A stretch of DNA of 64,000 bases from an uncultured Desulfatitalea sp. (lineage in GTDB: Bacteria > Desulfobacterota > Desulfobacteria > Desulfobacterales > Desulfosarcinaceae). Positions 6,099 to 15,943 of the stretch are shown here, piece by piece (within the stretch, counting starts at the first letter, position 1; each line of letters begins with the position of its first letter). Both the position numbers and the translations under genes were made by a program. Location: assembly GCA_937868765.1 (NCBI GenBank), contig CALMNL010000004.1:320749-384748 (forward strand), given 5' to 3'. The notes under the pieces are model-generated. The model saw only the letters and a list, made by a program, of their open reading frames with translations, was not told the DNA's origin and ran no database searches.

Positions 6099-6564
6099 AT
6101 GCGCTCCTGTTTGAGTGTTTTTTAGCGTCCCAAAACGTCTGGCCGGCCCCTGCCGGAAAAAGGAAAGCCGGTAGGGTCGGAAACAAACGGTGCCCGGCCC
6201 GGTCGGCATCCGTCGCTGCGTGCAAGGCAATGAGGATCCGAAAGGACGTCGAGCAGATAACAGAAACCCGATGCGTATGTCAATTTGACTTGTTGTTGAA
6301 AAATAGCACCAAAAGGACCCATGCCCTGCGTTGCAACTTGCAGCCTTTATCTTTCATCTTTCCCCTCGCACCTTTTTTTGCTATCCATGCCTGACACCGC
6401 ACGTCCTATCTGCACCGCCCTTGCGCCTGTTGGGCTTTATGGCGAAAAAACCGGCAACCGCCAAGCAAAGGGAAATACCTTGCCGACCTGCATCTGCCGC
6501 AAACCCAGGACGTCCCAGCCGTCCAGATCCTGGCGGTCGCTCCAAAACGGCGCCTGCAGTCCGG

Positions 6565-7704
6565 ATGGGTGACGGTTTGAAGAGGGCACGCACATACCTC
6601 GGCCGCCCCGGCCGCAGTCTTCTGACCGGGCTGGCACTGTGCCTGCTCATCGGCCTGGGCGCCTGCACCGGCCGCACCGCCCCGCCGGCCGCGCCGCCGC
6701 CGCCCCTGGCCGAACCGGCGCCGGAGTTCGATCGCCTGTTCCAGCGCAGCGGCGACGGCTGGACCGGTGGCGACGGCACGTTGTCCGTGGCGCTGCCCGA
6801 CGGCCGAACGGTGTGGCTGTTCGGCGACACGCTGCTGGGCACGGTGGCGGCCGACCAGACCCGGGCGGCCGATACGCCCTTTATCCACAACAGCCTGGTG
6901 GTGCAGCGCGGCGGGTCGCTGGAAACCCGCCACGGCCATCGGGACGGCGTGCCAGCCGCCTTCTTCGACCTTCCTGAAAAAAACGCGTGGTACTGGCCCG
7001 GCGACGGCGTCGTGGAAGACGGCAGCCTGCGCGTGTTCCTGCACCGGTTCCGTCTCGAGGCGCCGGAATTATGGGCCTGGCGCTGGACCGGCACCGCCCT
7101 GGCCACCCTCTGCCTGCCCGATCTGCGCTGGACCGGCACCACGCCGGCGCCCTCGGACAACGGCGTACTTTACGGCGTCTGCGTCCTGGAGACCGACGCC
7201 TTCACCTACGTTTACGGCACCCGGGATCAAAGCCGGCCCAAACAGGCCCATGTGGCCCGGGTCGCCGCCGGCCGCATCCTCGGTGCCTGGCACTACTTCG
7301 ACGGCCGCCGATGGACGGACCGATCCACCGACACGGCCCCCGTTCTCGACGGCGTCTCCACCCAGTACGCCGTGATCCAGGCCTGCCAGGGCTACTTTCT
7401 CTTCAGCATGGACGGCCGCGTCCCCTTTTCCAACGTCATCGTGGCCTACCGCTCCCGGGCCCCCACCGGCCCCTGGCAAGGCCCCCAGGCGGTTTACCAG
7501 GCCCCCGAAGCCAACGCCCGCATCGCCGTCTACAACCCCTTTGTCCACACCCAATTCACCGACCGGGGCCGGGTGCTCATCTCTTACAACGTCAACCACG
7601 TCAGCGACCCCGAGGCCCTCTTTGGCGACGCCACCATCTACCGGCCGCGCTTCATCCGCGTGAACCTGGGCGAACTCGACCGGCGCTTCCACGCCCGAGA
7701 ATAG
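6565..7704 (+). CDS. Probable secreted lipoprotein; beta-propeller/sialidase-fold-like (DUF4185-like) domain. Start uncertain
   Basis: MGDGLKRARTYLGRPGRSLLTGLALCLLIGLGAC has a signal peptide plus a lipobox-like LGAC. TVWLFGDTLLG and NAWYWPGDGVV are typical of GH43/DUF4185-like folds. The family assignment is from memory only. Confidence 0.5.
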   Translation: MGDGLKRARTYLGRPGRSLLTGLALCLLIGLGACTGRTAPPAAPPPPLAEPAPEFDRLFQRSGDGWTGGDGTLSVALPDGRTVWLFGDTLLGTVAADQTRAADTPFIHNSLVVQRGGSLETRHGHRDGVPAAFFDLPEKNAWYWPGDGVVEDGSLRVFLHRFRLEAPELWAWRWTGTALATLCLPDLRWTGTTPAPSDNGVLYGVCVLETDAFTYVYGTRDQSRPKQAHVARVAAGRILGAWHYFDGRRWTDRSTDTAPVLDGVSTQYAVIQACQGYFLFSMDGRVPFSNVIVAYRSRAPTGPWQGPQAVYQAPEANARIAVYNPFVHTQFTDRGRVLISYNVNHVSDPEALFGDATIYRPRFIRVNLGELDRRFHARE

Positions 7705-7749
7705 CCGCCCTATCCACCGCCTTGACGAAACGGCCGCTTTACGGCTACC

Positions 7750-9069
7750 GTGGGCCAACACCATCGAGGAGCCATGCCGATACCCTTCAGCGACCCCCTT
7801 GTGCGTTTTATCTCCGCCGGCTGGCGCCTGGCCTTCCGGGAACCGCTCCCCGAAGGCCTCCGGCAGCATCTGGGCCGCATGCTCTCGTTCGGCGCCGCCA
7901 TCGCCGCGGCCCGCATCATTTCGGCCATGGCCCAAATCCTCATTGGAAGAATCCTCGGCCCGACGCAATATGGAAAGTTGACCATCGTGATGCTGCTGGC
8001 CGGTTACTTTTCCCTGCCCATCATCGGCGGATGGGGGCTCGCTTTCACGCGCGTGGCCGCAACGCAGATGGAAACCGAAAAGCGATTTCAAGCCCTCAAG
8101 GCCTTGCTGCTCATTTGTCTTTGCTTCGCCGTGGCGGTCGCCTTCGGCCTGTATCTCTTGCGCATTCCCTTGGGCGAATGGCTCAACATCCAGCGCCCAC
8201 TGATGAACCTGACGCTGGTGATGAGCCTGTTGTATGCCTGGTGGATTCTGGCCAAGCAGGTCGCCCAGGCTTTCCAGGCGTGGGGCAGTTATATCGCCGC
8301 AGACCTGGGGTGGGCCTTGTTGCTGCTGGGCCTTGCCGCCCTTTTGATGGCGCTCGGGCAAATGACCCTCACGACCGCCTGTGCGGCATTCTGGACAGCC
8401 TACTTTTTCTCCGGCCTGGCCCTGGCCAAATGGGCACGCAAAGTCATCGGCACGGGTCCGGCGGTTGCCTTTGCCCGACCGATATTGCAGCACGGCGGCA
8501 TTCTGCTGCTCAACGGCATCATCGGCACGGCCGCCTACAGTGTCGATCGGCTCCTGCTGCAACGCTTCCTCGGCCCTCAGGAGGTCGGTCTCTATCAAGC
8601 TCATCTGCTGGCCACCTTCGGTTTGGTCAGCTCTTTGATGAACCTGATATTAACCTACGCTTTCCCCCTCTTTTGCAGAGATGATCACAACGCCATGCAC
8701 CAGAGCCTCAAACGTATATCATGGCTACAATACCCATTCACGATACTGCTGTCCGCCGTGGTGGGGATGGCCGGCCTGTATCTCTATGGTTATCCGGTTT
8801 CGCCGCTCCTATTCATTTGCTTCTGTCTCTTCAGCGGCCTTCAGTTTCACAGCCAGATCAAGGCCTGGTATATTTCCAGCAAAGGCGCCGCCGCCACGCG
8901 ACGCGTGCTCGGTTCTCAATTGCTTTTTCTGGGCATGGTCATTGTGCTGCTGACAGGGCTCACGAAGCATCTTGGCATTCAGGCCGGCGGCGTATCGCTG
9001 GTGGCATCTTCCTTGATTTCGCTGCTGTATCTATCCAGAATCGAAAAAGGACTGCCCGGCAATTCCTGA
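7750..9069 (+). CDS. Polysaccharide biosynthesis protein / oligosaccharide flippase (MOP superfamily, Wzx-like)
   Basis: About 12 predicted TM helices throughout. GTG at 7750 or ATG at 7774 (GAGGAG lies 2 nt upstream of the ATG). Typical Wzx length. Confidence 0.65.
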   Translation: MGQHHRGAMPIPFSDPLVRFISAGWRLAFREPLPEGLRQHLGRMLSFGAAIAAARIISAMAQILIGRILGPTQYGKLTIVMLLAGYFSLPIIGGWGLAFTRVAATQMETEKRFQALKALLLICLCFAVAVAFGLYLLRIPLGEWLNIQRPLMNLTLVMSLLYAWWILAKQVAQAFQAWGSYIAADLGWALLLLGLAALLMALGQMTLTTACAAFWTAYFFSGLALAKWARKVIGTGPAVAFARPILQHGGILLLNGIIGTAAYSVDRLLLQRFLGPQEVGLYQAHLLATFGLVSSLMNLILTYAFPLFCRDDHNAMHQSLKRISWLQYPFTILLSAVVGMAGLYLYGYPVSPLLFICFCLFSGLQFHSQIKAWYISSKGAAATRRVLGSQLLFLGMVIVLLTGLTKHLGIQAGGVSLVASSLISLLYLSRIEKGLPGNS

Positions 9070-9097
9070 AAAGCGGCCGAGGCCGCCCATACCAACT

Positions 9098-9967
9098 GTG
9101 AGCGCACGTATGCCAAATATTGAGAAGGATCGCCGCTTTGCGTTCGGCAAAAACTGGCGCGGGTTTCTGTCGTCCTTAACCAAGGAAAACATTCGAATCG
9201 CCGAAGCGTCGCTCCAGAAAATGCTGATGACCGATACGCTTCGGGGAAAGACATTTCTGGATATCGGCTCGGGAAGCGGTTTGTTTTCCCTGGCCGCACG
9301 CAACCTGGGTGCAAACGTGCACTCGTTCGACCATGACCCCCTGTCAGTGGCCTGTACAGCGGAACTCCGGTCAAGGTATCATCCCGATGATCCCGATTGG
9401 TCGATCGAGGAAGGCTCCATTCTCAATGAGCGCTTCATCGCATCGCTGAAAAGCTACGACATCGTCTACGCATGGGGAGTGCTGCATCATACCGGAAACA
9501 TGTGGGCGGCCTTAGCGCATTCCGCTTCCCTAGTAAAACAAAAGGGCATCCTGTTCATAGCCATCTACAACGATCAGGGAAGGATATCGGCGTTTTGGAA
9601 AAGGGTGAAAAAGGCTTACTGTTCCGGAGTATTGGGCAAGGCGATGATTTCTTGCATCTTCATTCCGTGTTTCTTTTCAATCGCATTGATCTCCTGTGTA
9701 TCCAGAAAAGAGAACGCCTTTCGGCAATACAAGTGGAACAGAGGCATGTCGATGGTGCACGACTGGGTTGACTGGCTGGGCGGTTTTCCCTTCGAGGTCG
9801 CGTCAGTCGACGCAATCTTCCATTTCCTGCACCAAAAGAACTTTTCGCTCCTCAATCTCAAAATGACCCGCGGCTCGGGAAACAATCAATTCGTGTTTGT
9901 CAGGAAGAATTCCGCCGCCTCTGCCGGCACCGAAGGCACGACAGAGGCGGCGCGGGGTGCCGTTTAG
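9098..9967 (+). CDS. Class I SAM-dependent methyltransferase with a C-terminal hydrophobic anchor segment
   Basis: Motif I FLDIGSGSGLFSLAA, motif post-I HSFDHD, DIVYAWGVLHH. Hydrophobic stretch MISCIFIPCFFSIALISCV. Gene-sized drop in GC (about 50% by eye). Start GTG 9098 or ATG 9110. Stop overlaps the convergent ThiF gene stop (TTAG). Confidence 0.6.
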   Translation: MSARMPNIEKDRRFAFGKNWRGFLSSLTKENIRIAEASLQKMLMTDTLRGKTFLDIGSGSGLFSLAARNLGANVHSFDHDPLSVACTAELRSRYHPDDPDWSIEEGSILNERFIASLKSYDIVYAWGVLHHTGNMWAALAHSASLVKQKGILFIAIYNDQGRISAFWKRVKKAYCSGVLGKAMISCIFIPCFFSIALISCVSRKENAFRQYKWNRGMSMVHDWVDWLGGFPFEVASVDAIFHFLHQKNFSLLNLKMTRGSGNNQFVFVRKNSAASAGTEGTTEAARGAV

Positions 9968-12027
9968 CCGGCGATACGGATCAGCGGCGGCGCAGCGGGC
10001 AAGTCCATCGAGGCGCACGGCAGCGGGGAGGTCCGGTCGGGGGCCGGGGAGATAAAACCGGCAACGGGTTTGCGCAGGGTGCGGCAGGCGACCGGACGGC
10101 CGTGGCCGATGCGAAAGAGCATGACGTGGCGCTCCTGGTCTCCGGAAACGGCGAAGAGCCGCTCGTAACGCGGCCACAGGGCTTCGAGCAGCCGCTGGTG
10201 GGCAGGGCTGAAATCGGCCTTTGCGCCCAATTGCCAGCGCAACCGGAAAAGGGTGATGGCGGTCATGGGTTGGAAGTCCAATCCCAGGGAGGCGGCCGTA
10301 AGCCAGACCCTCTCCAGGGCCTGCCCGCCTTGGACGAAGTCGGCCGGCAGGCCTCCCTGGATCTTGAGCAACCCGATGGCCGAGGCGGAGCACATGCCCT
10401 GGTAGGATATCCTGGAGATCATTTTGCCCAGTCCCAGACAGTTCAGGACGGCCATCACGGGCCAGGGCCGGGTGCGGCGCAGCAGCCATTCGCCGGCAGG
10501 TCCGGCCTCCAGGTTCTTCAAGGGAAATCCGTCCCGCCGGGACAGGGCTTCCTGGGAGGTAAAACGGATCATGCGCATCAGGTGTTCGTGCAAGGCCCGA
10601 TGGCCCGAGCGGATGGTGTCGGCCGCGGCGACCAGGCGGGCCGCCTCTCGGATCTGTTTGCGGTCGGTGAGCAGCAGCAGCCGGGCGCCGTGGAACGCGG
10701 CGGCGGCCTCGATCCGGTGCTGCGCACCAGGTTCCAGGGGCCTGCCATCATACAGAGTGCGATTGGTGTGACGTTCCCAGATGAAGCGCTGCAAAGGATC
10801 TTCGGCCTCGTCCGTGGCGCTCAGGGATATTTCGAGGCCGGCCCGATCGGCGGTGGTCATGGCCACCCGGGCCGAGAGGCCGCAACGACCGGCGGCCAGC
10901 GCCAGGTTTTCGGCGGCCGCACCACAGCTGATCCAGGAGGCCATCTGGGCCACGTTGAAGAAGGAATCGTCGGCCGCCGGGTCCAGCATCACGTGCACGG
11001 TGTGGCCATCGACAGCGAAGCGCCAGGGCTGGCAGTTGTCTCCGGATGGTGCGCGGACGGCGGCTTGCAGCAGATAATCTCTCGTCTCGGCGGAGATTTC
11101 TCTTCCCATCGGTGCGAAGACGGTCGGTGCCTGGGGTCTGGACTCGTTCAGGTATTCGGAAAGAGCCCCGATTTTTGACGCGAGCAGGCGTCGCTTGAGC
11201 CGCTGCATGGGTCCCCGGTTGCCCATCCAGAGCCGGCCCATGTGGAAGCGGCGCGTAAACGGATCGTACTGGGCGTAGAAAGGCGCGGGGCGCAGGCCGG
11301 GTTTGCGCAGCAGAATGCGCAGCGCTTCGGCGGCGGCCGCAGCGGCGCTCAGCTGGCATCCGGCCGAAAGAGAAGGGCCGCGTCCCTCCGCCATACTGAT
11401 GCTCCCCGGCAGCGTATACCCCTTCTGGGCCGCCTTGGGCGCCAGCCCCACGAAGAAGGCGATCAATTTTTCCTCCATGGACATGCGGTCGTCAAGATCG
11501 AAGTACTGGTCGAAGGTCATGCCGCGATCCGGCGCAAAGATGAGCATGGCCGTACCGAACCCGATGGGGCCGGCGGTGATCGCGGGAATGCCTTTTTCCC
11601 GCGCCCGCCGGAAGAGCAGGCGCCGCAGTTCCAGGCTGAAGAAATCGATGCTGTCGACCAGCAGATCGACCCCCTCCAGAAAAGCGTCGATGTTCTGCGG
11701 CGTCACGCCCTGGGGAAAGGAGCGCACTTCGGCGTAAGGGTTGATGGCCTGCAACTCCCGGCGCATCACCTCGATCTTCGGCCGGCCGAAAGTTCCTACC
11801 CGGGCGCCGTGCTGGCGGTTGACGTTAACCGTTTCAAAGCGGTCGAAATCGGCCAGATGAAAGCGGCCGATGCCGGTACGGGCCAGGGTGATCAAATGGG
11901 CGCCGCCTACGCCTCCCAAGCCAGGCAAGGCCACGGTGGCCCGATGCAGCCGATCCTGCTCGGCCAGGGTGATGAAACCGATGTTGCGGGCAAAAGCCGC
12001 TTCCCAATAGGGATATCTGGAATTCAT
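9964..12027 (-). CDS. ThiF/MoeB-type E1-like adenylyltransferase fused to tandem nitroreductase-like (FMN oxidoreductase) domains; MoeY/McbC-SagB-like architecture
   Basis: N-terminus: LAEQDRLHRATVALPGLGGVGGAHLITLARTGIGRFHLADFDRFETVNVNRQ (E1 Rossmann GxGxxG plus NRQ). C-terminus: LLQAAVRAPSGDNCQPWRF (nitroreductase signature) and a second RHTNR...-type half. 687 aa. Confidence 0.7.
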   Translation of the reverse strand: MNSRYPYWEAAFARNIGFITLAEQDRLHRATVALPGLGGVGGAHLITLARTGIGRFHLADFDRFETVNVNRQHGARVGTFGRPKIEVMRRELQAINPYAEVRSFPQGVTPQNIDAFLEGVDLLVDSIDFFSLELRRLLFRRAREKGIPAITAGPIGFGTAMLIFAPDRGMTFDQYFDLDDRMSMEEKLIAFFVGLAPKAAQKGYTLPGSISMAEGRGPSLSAGCQLSAAAAAAEALRILLRKPGLRPAPFYAQYDPFTRRFHMGRLWMGNRGPMQRLKRRLLASKIGALSEYLNESRPQAPTVFAPMGREISAETRDYLLQAAVRAPSGDNCQPWRFAVDGHTVHVMLDPAADDSFFNVAQMASWISCGAAAENLALAAGRCGLSARVAMTTADRAGLEISLSATDEAEDPLQRFIWERHTNRTLYDGRPLEPGAQHRIEAAAAFHGARLLLLTDRKQIREAARLVAAADTIRSGHRALHEHLMRMIRFTSQEALSRRDGFPLKNLEAGPAGEWLLRRTRPWPVMAVLNCLGLGKMISRISYQGMCSASAIGLLKIQGGLPADFVQGGQALERVWLTAASLGLDFQPMTAITLFRLRWQLGAKADFSPAHQRLLEALWPRYERLFAVSGDQERHVMLFRIGHGRPVACRTLRKPVAGFISPAPDRTSPLPCASMDLPAAPPLIRIAG

Positions 12028-12055
12028 TTTACTTCTCCTTTCACGCGAATCGAAA

Positions 12056-13222
12056 TCAGATCTGGACTTGCTGGGCCAGGCGGCCGCGGTCGATGACCCA
12101 GATGTGGGCCTGTTCGTCGTCGGCGGCGATCAGTCGATCCTGGGCCCAGGGCAGCACCATGCTGCGCAGGGAACGGCGGTCCAGGCCACACTGGCCGGCC
12201 AGCCAGCGCGCGTCCACCGGCTGGTTCTCTTTGCCGGCGGCCCCCACCAGGAGCCGTGCGGCCAGCGCCGTGGAAGGGTCGGTGGGGCCGTCCATCAGCC
12301 CGCGCAGCCGGGAAGCCAGCATTCGGCACAGGTGCAATGCCCGTTCGGGGTTGACGCGCAATTGCTCGAGGATCGCCGAACGGGGCCAGACCATCAGATC
12401 CACATCTTCGGAATGGGCCACCAGGCTGGCACTGCGCGGCCGCCCATCCAGGGCTGAGAGCTCTCCGAAGCATTGGCCCGGCCCCATGAGCAGGTGGCTG
12501 TCGGCTGCCTCCACCCCGTCGGCCGTCGGCGGCGCATCGGCTTGAACGCGCACCACGCCGCGCAGTACCTGAAATACTTCGCCACCGGCCTCCCCGCGCC
12601 GGAAGATTACTTCGTTCCGACGATAGAGGCGCCGCAGGCTCGACTCATCGAAGGGCCGCTCTTCGGGGTCCACCAAGCGCTCGCGACTGCCCGGCGGCAG
12701 GTTCTCCAGATCCACGTGCACCGGTACAATGGGCACCCCCAGCGCATGGTCCTGGATCGCGGGCGAAAGGGGGCGGGCCCCCACCAGACGCTGCATCAGC
12801 GGCAGGGCCGGCGGGTGCACCACGGCCAGGACATGGCGGGCCGGCGCCTGGCGCATCCGGCGGAAACACATCTGGATCAGTGACACCACCAGACCCGGAT
12901 GGCGCCGAAAGGCTTTGCGGATGCAGAACCAGCCCACCGTGGCGCACCCGCCGGTCAAGGTGCGCCGCAACGGTCCGAAATCAAAAGCGTGCTCGGCCGG
13001 CAGACCGGCCGGGCCATCCAGAACGAGGCGTATGCCGGCCACCGCCTCGCTGCCGCTGAAGGCCAGGTAGTTGCTGGTCTCCTCGAAACTGTCGTAGCGA
13101 TCGAAAATATGGTCCATGGTGAGGTGGAAACGCTGCTCCTCCGCCACGAACACCCCGTACCGCAAGCGGTACACCTCGGCCTTGTCGGCCGTCGAACGAA
13201 CGGTTCTCAATTCAATTGCCAT
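12056..13222 (-). CDS. Fusion: GNAT-fold N-acyltransferase (N-acyl amino acid synthase / Acetyltransf_5-like) plus cNMP-binding domain plus C-terminal Crp-type HTH
   Basis: MAIELRTV...AEVYRLRYGVFVAEEQRF is a LuxI/N-acyl-aa-synthase-like motif. FRRGEAGGEVFQVLRGVVRV...FGELSALDGRPRSASLVAHSEDVDLMV is cNMP-binding (beta-roll plus GEL[SA] motif). It is followed by a helix-turn-helix. AGGAGG RBS. Only 28 bp before the ThiF gene, so an operon. Confidence 0.6.
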   Translation of the reverse strand: MAIELRTVRSTADKAEVYRLRYGVFVAEEQRFHLTMDHIFDRYDSFEETSNYLAFSGSEAVAGIRLVLDGPAGLPAEHAFDFGPLRRTLTGGCATVGWFCIRKAFRRHPGLVVSLIQMCFRRMRQAPARHVLAVVHPPALPLMQRLVGARPLSPAIQDHALGVPIVPVHVDLENLPPGSRERLVDPEERPFDESSLRRLYRRNEVIFRRGEAGGEVFQVLRGVVRVQADAPPTADGVEAADSHLLMGPGQCFGELSALDGRPRSASLVAHSEDVDLMVWPRSAILEQLRVNPERALHLCRMLASRLRGLMDGPTDPSTALAARLLVGAAGKENQPVDARWLAGQCGLDRRSLRSMVLPWAQDRLIAADDEQAHIWVIDRGRLAQQVQI

Positions 13223-13261
13223 GGGATTCCTCCTATTGATTGATGTTGGCCCAAAGGAGCT

Positions 13262-13283
13262 CTTTTGCTCGATATGCAAAAGC
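13262..13283. promoter_or_regulatory. Perfect inverted repeat CTTTTGC-N7-GCAAAAG, 40-60 bp upstream of the GNAT-Crp start; candidate operator
   Basis: Read directly; 7-bp perfect arms. A second palindrome GCGCGCTG-N6-CAGCGCGC lies at 13307-13328. Confidence 0.35.
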
Positions 13284-13664
13284 AACTCCCCGAAATGCGC
13301 GCTGCCGATTCAGCGCGCAAGCGAGACAGTGGCTGCGCCGAGCGGGTGCGGCTGCGAGGCGACACGGCCGCGCACGAACCCCCGAATGGTTTCACCACCG
13401 CATACATCTAACCGTAATTGTTCAAAATGGATGGCAGAGCCGGGACAACGAAAAGGGAGATGGGGATATCCGGCAGGCGAGCAGCAAGCGTCCAAACGGC
13501 TCTTGCGCTCCTGCGGTGAACACCTTGGAAAGGCTGGAGATAGAGCGCTCGGCCATTTTGATCATCGACGAATCGGCTTTCGCTGGCAACAGCTAATGCA
13601 ATTCGCCGATTTCGCATCTTTTCCGGAAAGATGTCCCAAATGGCCGGCGGGGCGCGCAATGCGC

Positions 13665-13693: not shown

Positions 13694-13808
13694 GGCCCCT
13701 TTAGCCGCTGCGCCCACCCGTCCGGTTGGCGACGGCCACACGTTCGGCGGATTGGTCGATCAGGCTACCTGGTTGTTGACCCTATTATAAAAAAGGAGAA
13801 ATCCATCA

Positions 13809-14131
13809 TGGCGGACTATTTGATCAATGTTTTTCTGGATGATGCGAAGATGAAGAAGATCGAAGCGGCCGGTTTGGCCGACAAGATCATCGATCTGAAC
13901 GGCAAGAAGGCGGTACAGGTAGAGATGAGCGCCAAAGAGCAGAAGAAGCTGATCAAGGGTTTCACCGACCTGACCTTCGACGCCAACAACGCCTGCGAAT
14001 TGCCCGCTGAGGCCACGGACAAACTGCTGGGCATCATCGCCGACATGAAAACCCTGGATGTGATGAAATTCGCCATCATGAAGCTGTACAATCCCCTGGC
14101 CGGCAAAGCCCCCCGCTCGGCCCAGCGCTGA
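13809..14131 (+). CDS. Small Lys-rich hypothetical protein (107 aa)
   Basis: MADYLINVFLDDAKMKKIEAAGL... Strong RBS AAAGGAG, strong promoter upstream, rho-independent terminator downstream. Lower GC than neighbours. Confidence 0.6.
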
Positions 14132-14205: not shown

Positions 14206-15813
14206 TCACTGGATCTTCTTCAACGCCTGTTTGAGGACCTTGCCGGTGGGGTTGCGAGGGAACCGTTCCATGAAATCGATGCGTTCGGGGATCTTGTACT
14301 TGGCGATCTTGTCGCGCAGATAGGCTTGCACCTCTTCGGCCGTCAAGCTGCCCGGCCGCTTGAGCACGATGCAGGCCCGCACCCGCTCGCCCAGGGCGGC
14401 ATCGGGCATGCCCACCACGGCCACCTCGGCGATCTCGGGGTGCTTTTCCAGGGGGATTTCGATCTCGCGGGGGTAGATATTTTCACCGCCGCGGTTGATC
14501 ATCTCCTTGAGGCGGCCGGAAATATAGACGTACCCTTTTTCATCCATGTAGCCCATGTCCCCGGTGTGCAGCCACCCGTCGCGCAGGCTTTCGGCCGTGG
14601 CTTCGGGCTTGTTCAGATAACCGAGCATCACCGCCTCGCCCTTGACGCAGATCTCGCCCCTTTGCCCATAAGGCAGGATGCGGTTGGCGTCGTCCATGAT
14701 CTCCACCTCCAGTCCCGGAAACGCCGTGCCGATGGAGTTCCAGTTGGCCGGCACCCCGGTGCCGGTGGTGGAGACCCCGCAGGCTTCGGTCAGGCCGTAG
14801 CCGTCGATCACCTGGACGCCGAACTTCTCTTTGAACCCCTCGATGAGCCGCACCGGCATGGGCGCGGCCCCGCTGTGGGCCAGGCGCAGCTTGAGCCGGC
14901 CGTGGTCGATGGTTTGGGGATCGACGGCATTGTATATATAATCATACATGGCCGGCACTCCCTGTACAATCGTAACCCCGTAGCGCAGCAGCGAGGGCCA
15001 GAAATCGGCCGGCGAGAAGCTGCGCCGGATGCACAGGGTCAATCCCTGAAAAATGAACGGGTAGGTCCACACGCAGAGGGGATTGGTGTGGAACATGGGC
15101 AGGATGATCATCATCACGTCGCCGGGCCGGGTGGTGCCTAGTACCGCCCGGCCGCGGCAGATACACAACTGGTTGCGATTGGACAGCAGGATCCCCTTGG
15201 GCATGCCGGTGGTGCCCGACGAGTAGAGCAACAACAGGGCATCGTCCGGGGCCTGGGGCACCAGGCATTCATGGTCGGGATAATTCGCCAGAACCTCTTT
15301 CAGCGTGGTTTCGGCAACGGCCTGGCCGTGATCGATGCCGGTCACCACCTCCACGAGGGCCGGTTTGTGCCGGGAAAGCGCCAGGCCGGATGCGAAATCC
15401 ACCATGTACTCGCTGCCCACGAAAACCACCTTGGGCTTTGCATCTTCGAGCACATAGGCGATCTCCGGCCCCTTGAGCATGTAGTTGATGGCGCCGGCCA
15501 CGGCCCCCAGTTTCTGGGCGCCGAACATGGTGTAGTATATATCGGGGGAATTAAGGATCATGGTGGAAACGATGTCGCCCTTTTGCACCCCTTTGGACTT
15601 CAAGTAGTGGGCCACCCGATTGGCGCGCCGGTTGACCTGGGCATAGGTGACCACCTCGTCGTAATAAAGCACCAGCGGCGTATCGGGGATCTCGGCGGCC
15701 CGCGTTACCAGCATCTCGGCCACGCTGTCGAAGGCCAGGCGTTTTCCCGTCAAGGTATCCAGTTTCTCCAGAGGCACCAGTTCGCGCATCAGACGCTTGC
15801 TTTTATCGATCAT
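14206..15813 (-). CDS. Long-chain fatty acid--CoA ligase (AMP-dependent synthetase/ligase)
   Basis: LYSSGTTGMPKGI (AMP-binding motif I), YGLTE, GWLHTGDMGYMDEKGYVYISGRLKE, NPTGKVLK. Start MIDKSK has a GGGAGCAGGA RBS. Confidence 0.8.
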   Translation of the reverse strand: MIDKSKRLMRELVPLEKLDTLTGKRLAFDSVAEMLVTRAAEIPDTPLVLYYDEVVTYAQVNRRANRVAHYLKSKGVQKGDIVSTMILNSPDIYYTMFGAQKLGAVAGAINYMLKGPEIAYVLEDAKPKVVFVGSEYMVDFASGLALSRHKPALVEVVTGIDHGQAVAETTLKEVLANYPDHECLVPQAPDDALLLLYSSGTTGMPKGILLSNRNQLCICRGRAVLGTTRPGDVMMIILPMFHTNPLCVWTYPFIFQGLTLCIRRSFSPADFWPSLLRYGVTIVQGVPAMYDYIYNAVDPQTIDHGRLKLRLAHSGAAPMPVRLIEGFKEKFGVQVIDGYGLTEACGVSTTGTGVPANWNSIGTAFPGLEVEIMDDANRILPYGQRGEICVKGEAVMLGYLNKPEATAESLRDGWLHTGDMGYMDEKGYVYISGRLKEMINRGGENIYPREIEIPLEKHPEIAEVAVVGMPDAALGERVRACIVLKRPGSLTAEEVQAYLRDKIAKYKIPERIDFMERFPRNPTGKVLKQALKKIQ

Positions 15814-15943
15814 GAATCCTGCTCCCATTCCAGATATTCAGCTCAGACCCCAGCAACGCTATACCACGAGGCCGTGGGGATGCCATACCAAAAACGGCGG
15901 CCGGGCACGGCTGTTTCTTCTCATGAACCGCAGCCGGCAAAAA

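Follow-up and report, generated by a model that had tools for sequence, protein, structure and literature searches.

Which compound would be made by an operon in which an acyltransferase joined to a regulatory module precedes an adenylating enzyme joined to a flavin domain, and is such chemistry already known? The question is raised by a locus of an uncultured Desulfatitalea sp. (assembly GCA_937868765.1, contig CALMNL010000004.1, positions 320,749 to 384,748 of the forward strand). The whole stretch of DNA that was analysed, 64,000 nucleotides in length, is referred to here as the window, and the two genes concerned, termed gene A and gene B, occupy positions 9964-13222 on its minus strand. 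Analysis of the locus indicates that the operon probably encodes a pathway of the oxzAB/trzAS type, in a separate clade, leading to an N-acyl-oxazolone or a ring-opened N-acyl-dehydroamino acid. The core of that pathway has already been described. New here are the fusion of a Crp-like module to the acyltransferase and the anaerobic host.

In the study of de Rond, Asay and Moore (bioRxiv 10.1101/2020.06.11.147165), OxzAB of Pseudoalteromonas rubra was found through domain co-occurrence and reconstituted in vitro. OxzA converts decanoyl-CoA and tyrosine to N-decanoyl-tyrosine, from which OxzB forms the oxazolone tyrazolone with ATP; OxzB homologues were found there in alpha-, beta- and gammaproteobacteria only (10.1101/2020.06.11.147165). 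The same chemistry was described for TyzACB and TrzAS (Rv1356c/Rv1355c) of M. tuberculosis by Grigg et al. and Kleetz et al. (PMC10404671, PMC12856293). TrzS (Rv1355c, formerly MoeY) performs an ATP-dependent cyclisation and then an O2-dependent desaturation, the structure nearest to its flavin domain is Acg, and the fold of FeeM and the acyl-homoserine lactone (AHL) synthases is present in TyzA and OxzA (PMC10404671, PMC12856293). Furthermore, trzAS adjoins the cyclic di-GMP (c-di-GMP) turnover genes rv1354c and rv1357c, and a signalling role was suggested by Kleetz et al. (PMC12856293, PMC10404671). Oxazolones hydrolyse easily (10.1101/2020.06.11.147165; PMC12856293). So far, characterised examples of the pathway come from aerobic Proteobacteria and from mycolic-acid Actinobacteria, and its presence in Planctomycetota has been inferred; both author groups suspect a signalling role for the oxazolones. 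A preliminary description of the present locus, made from the sequence alone, had been aware of no described pathway with such an architecture, whereas the core is that of OxzAB and TrzAS (10.1101/2020.06.11.147165; PMC10404671; PMC12856293).

Layout of the operon

Read-out of the open reading frames (ORFs) places both genes on the minus strand with 28 nt between them. The features of the operon are as follows.

12056 to 13222, minus strand: gene A, 388 aa, a predicted N-acyl amino acid synthase of the OxzA/TrzA type with a Crp-like module (from the ORF, Pfam, a structural model and 29 full-length homologues)
12668 to 13222, minus strand: FeeM/LuxI-fold acyltransferase domain of gene A, aa 1-185
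12287 to 12637, minus strand: predicted cyclic-nucleotide-binding (cNMP) beta-roll of gene A, aa 196-312, containing FGELS...RSAS as phosphate-binding cassette (Pfam cNMP_binding, E=4e-14, aa 198-289)
12059 to 12277, minus strand: predicted Crp-type winged helix-turn-helix (HTH) of gene A, aa 316-388, from hhalign comparison with Crp/FNR and the model topology
12028 to 12055, minus strand: 28-nt spacer between genes A and B, with the AAGGAG ribosome-binding site of gene B at 12035-12040, read directly from the sequence
9964 to 12027, minus strand: gene B, 687 aa, putative OxzB/TrzS-like oxazolone synthetase (ThiF cyclase plus flavin-dependent oxidase, FDO, as desaturase)
11239 to 11991, minus strand: ThiF/E1-like adenylating (cyclase) domain of gene B, aa 13-263 (Pfam ThiF, E=1e-44)
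10057 to 11097, minus strand: FDO of gene B, an Acg-type tandem nitroreductase, aa 311-657

The mechanical ORF of gene A spans 12056-13285 and begins with TTG at 13285. The ATG at 13222 is preferred as the start because it is preceded, at a distance of 7 nt, by an AGGAGG ribosome-binding site and an M-x-I start is found at this position in every homologue of the alignment. Gene B begins with ATG at 12027, 28 nt past the stop of gene A, and its stop ends at 9964. No terminator-like site was found in the spacer at 12028-12055. The third-position GC content of both genes is 0.80, which matches that of the surrounding real genes. The two-gene operon with a 28-bp gap that had been proposed is thus borne out by the minus-strand ORFs, by the ribosome-binding site within the spacer and by the lack of a terminator-like site there. 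The domains assigned to both ORFs were likewise recovered as Pfam matches to FeeM, cNMP_binding, ThiF and Nitroreductase.

Linkage and fusion of the two genes

The conservation of the pair was followed over one genome per species (GTDB representatives). Relatives of gene A were present at 28 loci, all in metagenome-assembled genomes (MAGs), the hosts of which are mostly Desulfobacterales, Desulfatitalea and Desulfosarcinaceae, with Riflebacteria and Myxococcales in addition. It can be observed that a gene B orthologue lies directly 3' and on the same strand at every locus carrying a gene A orthologue at least 43% identical (19/19). The adjacency of the pair is kept, conservation of the gene neighbourhood across Desulfobacterota having been proposed earlier as a check. 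At two further GTDB loci the gene B orthologue is divergent and within 3 kb of gene A, and at six metagenomic loci (L001-L006) gene B again stands directly 3' of gene A.

FeeM, ThiF and FDO domains are also found within one polypeptide. Single-chain FeeM-ThiF-FDO proteins of 850-900 aa represent 16 of the best 120 homologues of gene B, and the FeeM domain in those fusions is matched with E=3e-37. Plasmid pDV1 of D. vulgaris Hildenborough encodes a FeeM-like-ThiF-FDO chain of 989 aa (DVU_RS16045; L037, NC_005863.1, 37254-40223), which is the seed of PRK14852 (NF011425) and is annotated as 'hypothetical' or 'ThiF family adenylyltransferase'. The exopolysaccharide locus in which it is located is of the XrtA/PEP-CTERM type, and PEP-CTERM proteins, a sigma-54 regulator and a PilZ protein are encoded close by. 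Within the plasmid collection, the matches consisted of the pDV1 fusions of D. vulgaris and one partial Bdellovibrio match. In D. postgatei the ThiF-FDO protein is partnered by a divergent TIGR03694 'exosortase-associated acyltransferase' (177 bits). Genes A and B form one unit; stronger evidence than this linkage and these fusions can hardly come from comparative genomics.

The acyltransferase domain of gene A

The N-terminal domain of gene A matches Pfam FeeM at aa 16-171 with E=2e-18. In a profile comparison, this domain also matches BjaI and RpaI, two CoA-dependent AHL synthases, across the LuxI signature region. The AlphaFold model of the protein, built on 22 homologues, has a predicted local distance difference test score (pLDDT) of 87 and a predicted template modelling score (pTM) of 0.86. 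Arg21, Phe25, Glu28, Glu29, Arg31, Asp41, Asp44 and Arg65, which belong to the LuxI/FeeM signature, are invariant in the family. This invariance argues for a catalytically competent acyltransferase domain, which is accordingly predicted to be a working enzyme. Against TIGR03694, the model of the PEP-CTERM/exosortase-associated acyltransferases, gene A scores 18.8 bits, under the cut-off of 112 bits. A second acyltransferase is not present within the operon.

The Crp-like module of gene A

The remainder of gene A had been described earlier as a complete Crp-type module, and the present results agree with this. Profile-profile comparison by hhalign with Crp/FNR proteins gave a probability of 99.5% (E=1.5e-22) over aa 190-388, running through the HTH_Crp_2 region to the end of the protein. 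For the beta-roll region, the best sequence matches in the PDB are Crp of T. thermophilus and of M. tuberculosis, and the cassette FGELS...RSAS appears in gene A as in the cAMP-binding Crp proteins of that alignment. Phe252, Gly253 and Glu254 of the beta-roll are invariant in the family, and the cassette Arg263 is kept in 18 of its 22 members. At the C-terminus of the model, helices at 316-329, 338-344 and 349-361 are followed by a beta hairpin at 365-376, reproducing the Crp order of helices and wing. A predicted full Crp-like sensor and winged helix, fused to the acyltransferase, was thereby confirmed at the level of profile and model. The winged helix itself may bind DNA and is regarded as a candidate for that function.

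The ThiF and flavin domains of gene B

Gene B combines the ThiF domain with a Nitroreductase match in Pfam, and the NCBIfam Acg-family model of flavin mononucleotide (FMN) oxidoreductases covers aa 319-655. In an alignment of 35 homologues, the ThiF residues GxGGxGG (36-42), Asp62, Asn70-Arg71-Gln72, Lys84 and Asp125/Asp128 are invariant, as are the flavin motifs APSGDNxQPW (326-335) and Arg419/Asn422/Arg423. The nearest solved sequence is TcdA (E=2e-13), the ThiF-like cyclodehydratase of the tRNA modification ct6A, which is itself an oxazolone-forming enzyme. The nearest solved structures are Acg and the ThiF-type enzymes TcdA, ThiF and MoeB, while an OxzB-type structure was not found in the PDB. 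Kinship to OxzB and TrzS was judged by the NCBIfam model of the Rv1355c family and by the nearest structures shared with these enzymes. With that model (NF005901), gene B is matched over both domains at E=8.5e-94.

Comparison with described systems

The organisation of OxzAB is reproduced here as a two-gene operon: the acyltransferase gene and the gene for the ThiF-nitroreductase di-domain protein share a strand, the former directly 5' of the latter. Homology also points to a shared chemistry of N-acylation, ATP-dependent cyclisation and flavin-dependent oxidation. The differences from OxzAB are the host, which is anaerobic and Desulfobacterales-like, and the additional Crp-like module of 200 aa on the acyltransferase. 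TrzAS also has the acyltransferase gene upstream and Acg as the structure nearest to its FDO half, as in gene B, and it lies near nucleotide second-messenger genes; TrzA, however, is a stand-alone acyltransferase, whereas gene A carries the Crp-like module. In the Tyz system, ThiF and FDO are separate proteins, in contrast to their fusion in gene B. The PRK14852 protein DVU_RS16045 has the same FeeM-like, ThiF and FDO parts, of which the ThiF-FDO portion is 42% identical to gene B, but they form one fused chain without a cNMP or HTH module.

For the module itself, the comparison extends to other families. Crp/FNR regulators have the same beta-roll with an FGE...R(S/T)A cassette, followed by the C-helix and winged helix in the same order, but no enzyme domain. 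FeeM/NasY and LuxI-type synthases are single-domain proteins of approximately 190-220 aa, unlike gene A, and the literature search yielded no description of such a synthase fused to a cNMP-binding or HTH domain. The mycobacterial Gcn5-related N-acetyltransferases (GNATs) Rv0998 and MSMEG_5458 are gated by cAMP and offer a precedent for control of a GNAT-fold enzyme by a cyclic nucleotide within the same chain. Rv0998 differs from gene A in the N-terminal position of its cNMP domain, in the acetylation of protein lysines by its GNAT domain and in the lack of an HTH.

Proposed pathway

The pathway proposed for the operon consists of three steps. During the first step, the FeeM/LuxI-fold domain of gene A would acylate the amino group of an amino acid, with acyl-CoA or acyl-ACP as the donor of the fatty acyl chain, giving an N-acyl amino acid; the amino acid is aromatic in the characterised systems. 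During the second step, the ThiF domain of gene B would adenylate the free carboxylate with ATP, and the amide oxygen would close the 5(4H)-oxazolone ring. During the third step, the Acg-type FMN domain would desaturate the alpha-beta bond, resulting in a conjugated oxazolone. [quoted passage not shown] From the domain content, cAMP or cGMP most likely controls the acyltransferase, its DNA binding at the operon's own promoter, or the two together. A diffusible or membrane lipid signal is considered the most likely product, in preference to an antibiotic peptide. The earlier proposal of a cNMP-linked, oxidatively tailored, acylated amino-acid signal was thus near the real chemistry, although its peptide or TOMM-type (thiazole/oxazole-modified microcin) side is not retained.

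Several results weigh against this interpretation. The score of gene B with NF005901 is 315 bits against a curated cut-off of 476, and its best NCBIfam model, the 'hypothetical protein' family PRK14851, gives 796 bits against a cut-off of 1170, both values implying a separate, uncharacterised clade. Within gene A, 4 of the 22 family members lack the cassette Arg, Pfam HTH models give no match to the C-terminal 94 aa, the last 75 residues included, even at E<=10, and the residues of the recognition helix vary between clades. Binding of cyclic nucleotides and of DNA by gene A is uncertain because of the gaps at the cassette Arg and the non-conserved recognition helix. Finally, the FDO step needs O2 and the hosts are anaerobes, so that both the electron acceptor and the product may differ from those of the characterised systems.

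The last point leads to the alternative in which the same enzymes would yield, in place of a stable oxazolone, a ring-opened N-acyl-2,3-dehydroamino acid comparable to the stieleriacines, thalassotalic acids and kyonggic acids, or, under anoxia, a cyclised compound that is not desaturated. This outcome is possible, though rather doubtful. It is in line with the clusters combining an N-acyl amino acid synthase with ThiF and nitroreductase in Stieleria, Thalassotalea and Massilia, which correlate with dehydrotyrosine products and for which no oxazolones have been observed, with the easy hydrolysis of oxazolones, and with the requirement of the characterised FDO step for O2 in hosts that here are anaerobes. 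Yet the fused ThiF-FDO enzymes OxzB and TrzS release oxazolones in vitro. A different function for gene A itself, chiefly that of a transcription factor whose FeeM-like domain is a sensor or pseudo-enzyme and whose Crp module regulates gene B and other genes, is improbable. Such a function would suit the full Crp-like module with its winged helix, the occurrence of the FeeM-cNMP unit fused to HisKA/HATPase (P0195) and the conserved palindrome upstream of gene A, described below. The invariant LuxI/FeeM signature residues speak against it, however, and the fusion of the same FeeM domain to ThiF-FDO elsewhere fits an enzyme and not a sensor. Moreover, no other acyltransferase is available in the operon to provide the substrate, and the recognition helix is poorly conserved.

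Two further explanations concern gene B. If it activated a sulfur carrier for cofactor biosynthesis in the manner of MoeB, ThiF or MoeZ, which is the function given by automatic annotation, its adjacency to gene A would be incidental. This is very improbable, considering that the MoeB/ThiF equivalog models give 63-84 bits against cut-offs of 152-376, that no ThiS/MoaD-like or rhodanese partner is present in the neighbourhoods, and that strict co-occurrence or fusion with an acyltransferase and FDO has no role in cofactor synthesis. In addition, the mycobacterial homologue once called MoeY has now been shown to be TrzS. Membership of gene B in a MoeY-like family had been expected to weaken the view of the operon as a system; instead, the match to the MoeY/Rv1355c superfamily supports the operon, because MoeY, as TrzS, works with an adjacent acyltransferase. 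Least probable, to the point of being scarcely credible, is a system of RiPPs (peptides synthesised ribosomally and modified post-translationally), in which the E1-like domain would activate a peptide C-terminus and the flavoprotein would oxidise azolines. The preliminary description had drawn both the TOMM analogy (McbB/McbC, SagC/SagB) and the microcin-C analogy (MccB/MccE/MccD), while correctly reporting the lack of a YcaO gene, of which there is none among the ORFs annotated at 0.4-48.5 kb and none in the related loci. Against both analogies, the flavoprotein half of gene B is of the Acg/FDO type and the partner enzyme acts on small molecules. For the former, gene B also lacks a RiPP recognition element, given that its ThiF domain starts at residue 13. 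For the latter, the same start leaves no N-terminal extension for a peptide clamp of the MccB/PaaA type, and structural alignment with MccB covers the adenylation core only (227/357 MccB residues). A conserved precursor-peptide gene was not found near the pair.

FeeM-cNMP proteins beyond this locus

The combination of FeeM and cNMP domains extends well beyond the pair. A HMMER search over 1.84 billion cluster representatives (50% identity clusters) provided 150 listed matches, 148 of them new. Among these 148 listed matches, FeeM is followed by cNMP in at least 98 representatives, of which 12 or 13 possess a winged helix and most are approximately 310 aa in length. In variants with extensions (P0195, P0211, P0279), the added part is HisKA/HATPase, as in P0195, or another cNMP domain, or else a cytochrome P450. 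When metagenome loci of the 310-aa form were scanned with 6 closer sequences as queries, some forms were located directly behind a ThiF-FDO gene (L043, L044, L052) and some beside split ThiF and FDO genes (L059, L060). Stand-alone 310-aa forms were also seen with other neighbours, either an LCM-type methyltransferase together with a HIT protein or a hybrid kinase together with an RR-HD-GYP protein (L042, L048).

Distant winged-helix paralogues in a Riflebacteria MAG (L026, 2980-10617) and a Myxococcales MAG (L028, 8001-12237) lie beside genes for B12-binding radical S-adenosylmethionine (SAM) proteins and are without a ThiF-FDO partner. From this setting, as far as gene content can indicate it, N-acyl amino acids may be tailored there by another chemistry. 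The Riflebacteria locus also encodes a protein of 678 aa in which a strong cNMP_binding domain is accompanied by a weak match to FeeM (23.5 bits, under the Pfam cut-off of 27). Given the varied extensions and partners, FeeM-cNMP would be a general module for regulated acyl-amino-acid synthesis, and the oxazolone pathway looks like one use of it. The literature search gave no paper in which a cyclic-nucleotide-binding domain is connected with an N-acyl amino acid synthase or with oxzA.

Neighbouring genes

The methyltransferase (9098-9967) and the flippase (Polysacc_synt, 7750-9069), both on the plus strand, are real genes convergent to gene B, and the methyltransferase stop overlaps that of gene B by 4 nt. 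They belong to a plus-strand set at 6331-9967, in which a DUF5005/DUF4185 gene is followed by the flippase and then by the SAM methyltransferase. GC content is 0.54-0.58 over approximately 8-10 kb, where the flippase and methyltransferase lie, versus 0.65-0.69 in the flanks. The low GC implies that part of the unit may have been acquired by horizontal transfer. The methyltransferase, the flippase, the DUF5005 gene and the acyl-CoA synthetase were considered as members of the pathway and rejected, as L003, L009 and L010 were the only loci in which tblastn located them in the vicinity of the pair. Retention of the methyltransferase and flippase close to the pair is confined to some relatives of about 80% identity, where they occur as a joint unit. 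In L003 they are together, with two extra genes between them and gene B; in L009 the methyltransferase was not detected near the pair by tblastn. The DUF5005 gene, flippase and methyltransferase are a polysaccharide-type unit that merely abuts the operon. The low-GC, convergent position noted earlier for the methyltransferase and flippase is therefore correct, but their assignment to the system is not, since they are not conserved with the pair.

Upstream of gene A, the acyl-CoA synthetase at 14206-15828 is conserved only in the closest relatives and could supply substrate. More generally, the flanks of the pair differ wholly between clades, with PilZ and MsrAB in Desulfatitalea and SurA-like genes elsewhere, while PilZ, c-di-GMP and sigma-54 genes recur near related loci. 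In two loci of the Desulfatitalea type (L001:11735-13398, L002:11548-13209), the pair is followed by a PilZ-domain gene and by a gene for a methionine-sulfoxide reductase in which MsrA and MsrB are fused. Judged by gene content, these neighbours hint at links to c-di-GMP signalling and oxidative stress. The remaining window is occupied by housekeeping genes, namely ada/ogt, lon, clpXP, tig, kup, fabH, pst-phoU and glnS.

Region upstream of gene A

One further feature is located 30-70 nt 5' of the gene A start.

13253 to 13291, minus strand: imperfect palindrome GGGGAGTTGCTTTTGC-N7-GCAAAAGAGCTCCTTT, 39 nt

The core of this palindrome occurs once in the window. The palindrome is kept in L003, L009, L010 and partly in L011, the orthologues of which are at least 66% identical. 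No equivalent repeat is present upstream of gene A in the clades of 45-62% identity, and a family-wide operator was rejected for this reason. The palindrome may be an operator or a 5'-leader hairpin, both being candidates, with thin support from covariation. A sigma-54 promoter 5' of gene A is poorly supported: the conserved block can be read as a weak sigma-54-like element, with GG-N10-GC and a perfect TTGCA, but there are 4 mismatches to TGGCAC-N5-TTGCW, and looser matches are no commoner than chance. An Rfam search of the 585-nt region upstream of gene A gave no credible riboswitch or other known RNA.

On the plus strand, a DUF6955 gene (approximately 107 aa, about 13808-14131) is divergent from gene A, its mechanical ORF starting at 13631. 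It has a strong, conserved promoter, TTGACA-N17-TATAAA. The gene adjoins gene A down to orthologues of 66% identity (L003, L009, L010, L011), not in the Desulfatitalea loci, and may be a clade-specific accessory gene.

Implications

If the assignment is right, the reach of the oxazolone pathway would be extended to anaerobic sulfate-reducer lineages, and the question arises of what replaces O2 in the desaturation. For this Desulfobacterota branch, D. vulgaris Hildenborough, with its plasmid-borne fusion, is a tractable model organism. Hundreds of Desulfobacterota proteins annotated as 'ThiF family adenylyltransferase' or 'molybdopterin/thiamine biosynthesis' could be re-read as oxazolone synthetases, and likewise those under the 'hypothetical protein' models PRK14851 and PRK14852. 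Furthermore, the fusion of an acyltransferase with a Crp-like module is more direct evidence of a second-messenger link than are the neighbours of trzAS. A broader proposal, tentative and unlikely at present, is that FeeM-cNMP proteins, with their winged-helix, histidine-kinase or P450 extensions, form a class of second-messenger-gated and possibly self-regulating lipid-signal synthases. Under the same proposal, the acyl-oxazolone of strictly anaerobic Desulfobacterales could in addition report exposure to oxygen, through the flavin step that requires O2. Were such a class real, the synthase, the cyclic-nucleotide sensor and the transcriptional output would be united in one polypeptide, serving an AHL-like signal in the form of an N-acyl amino acid or an oxazolone.

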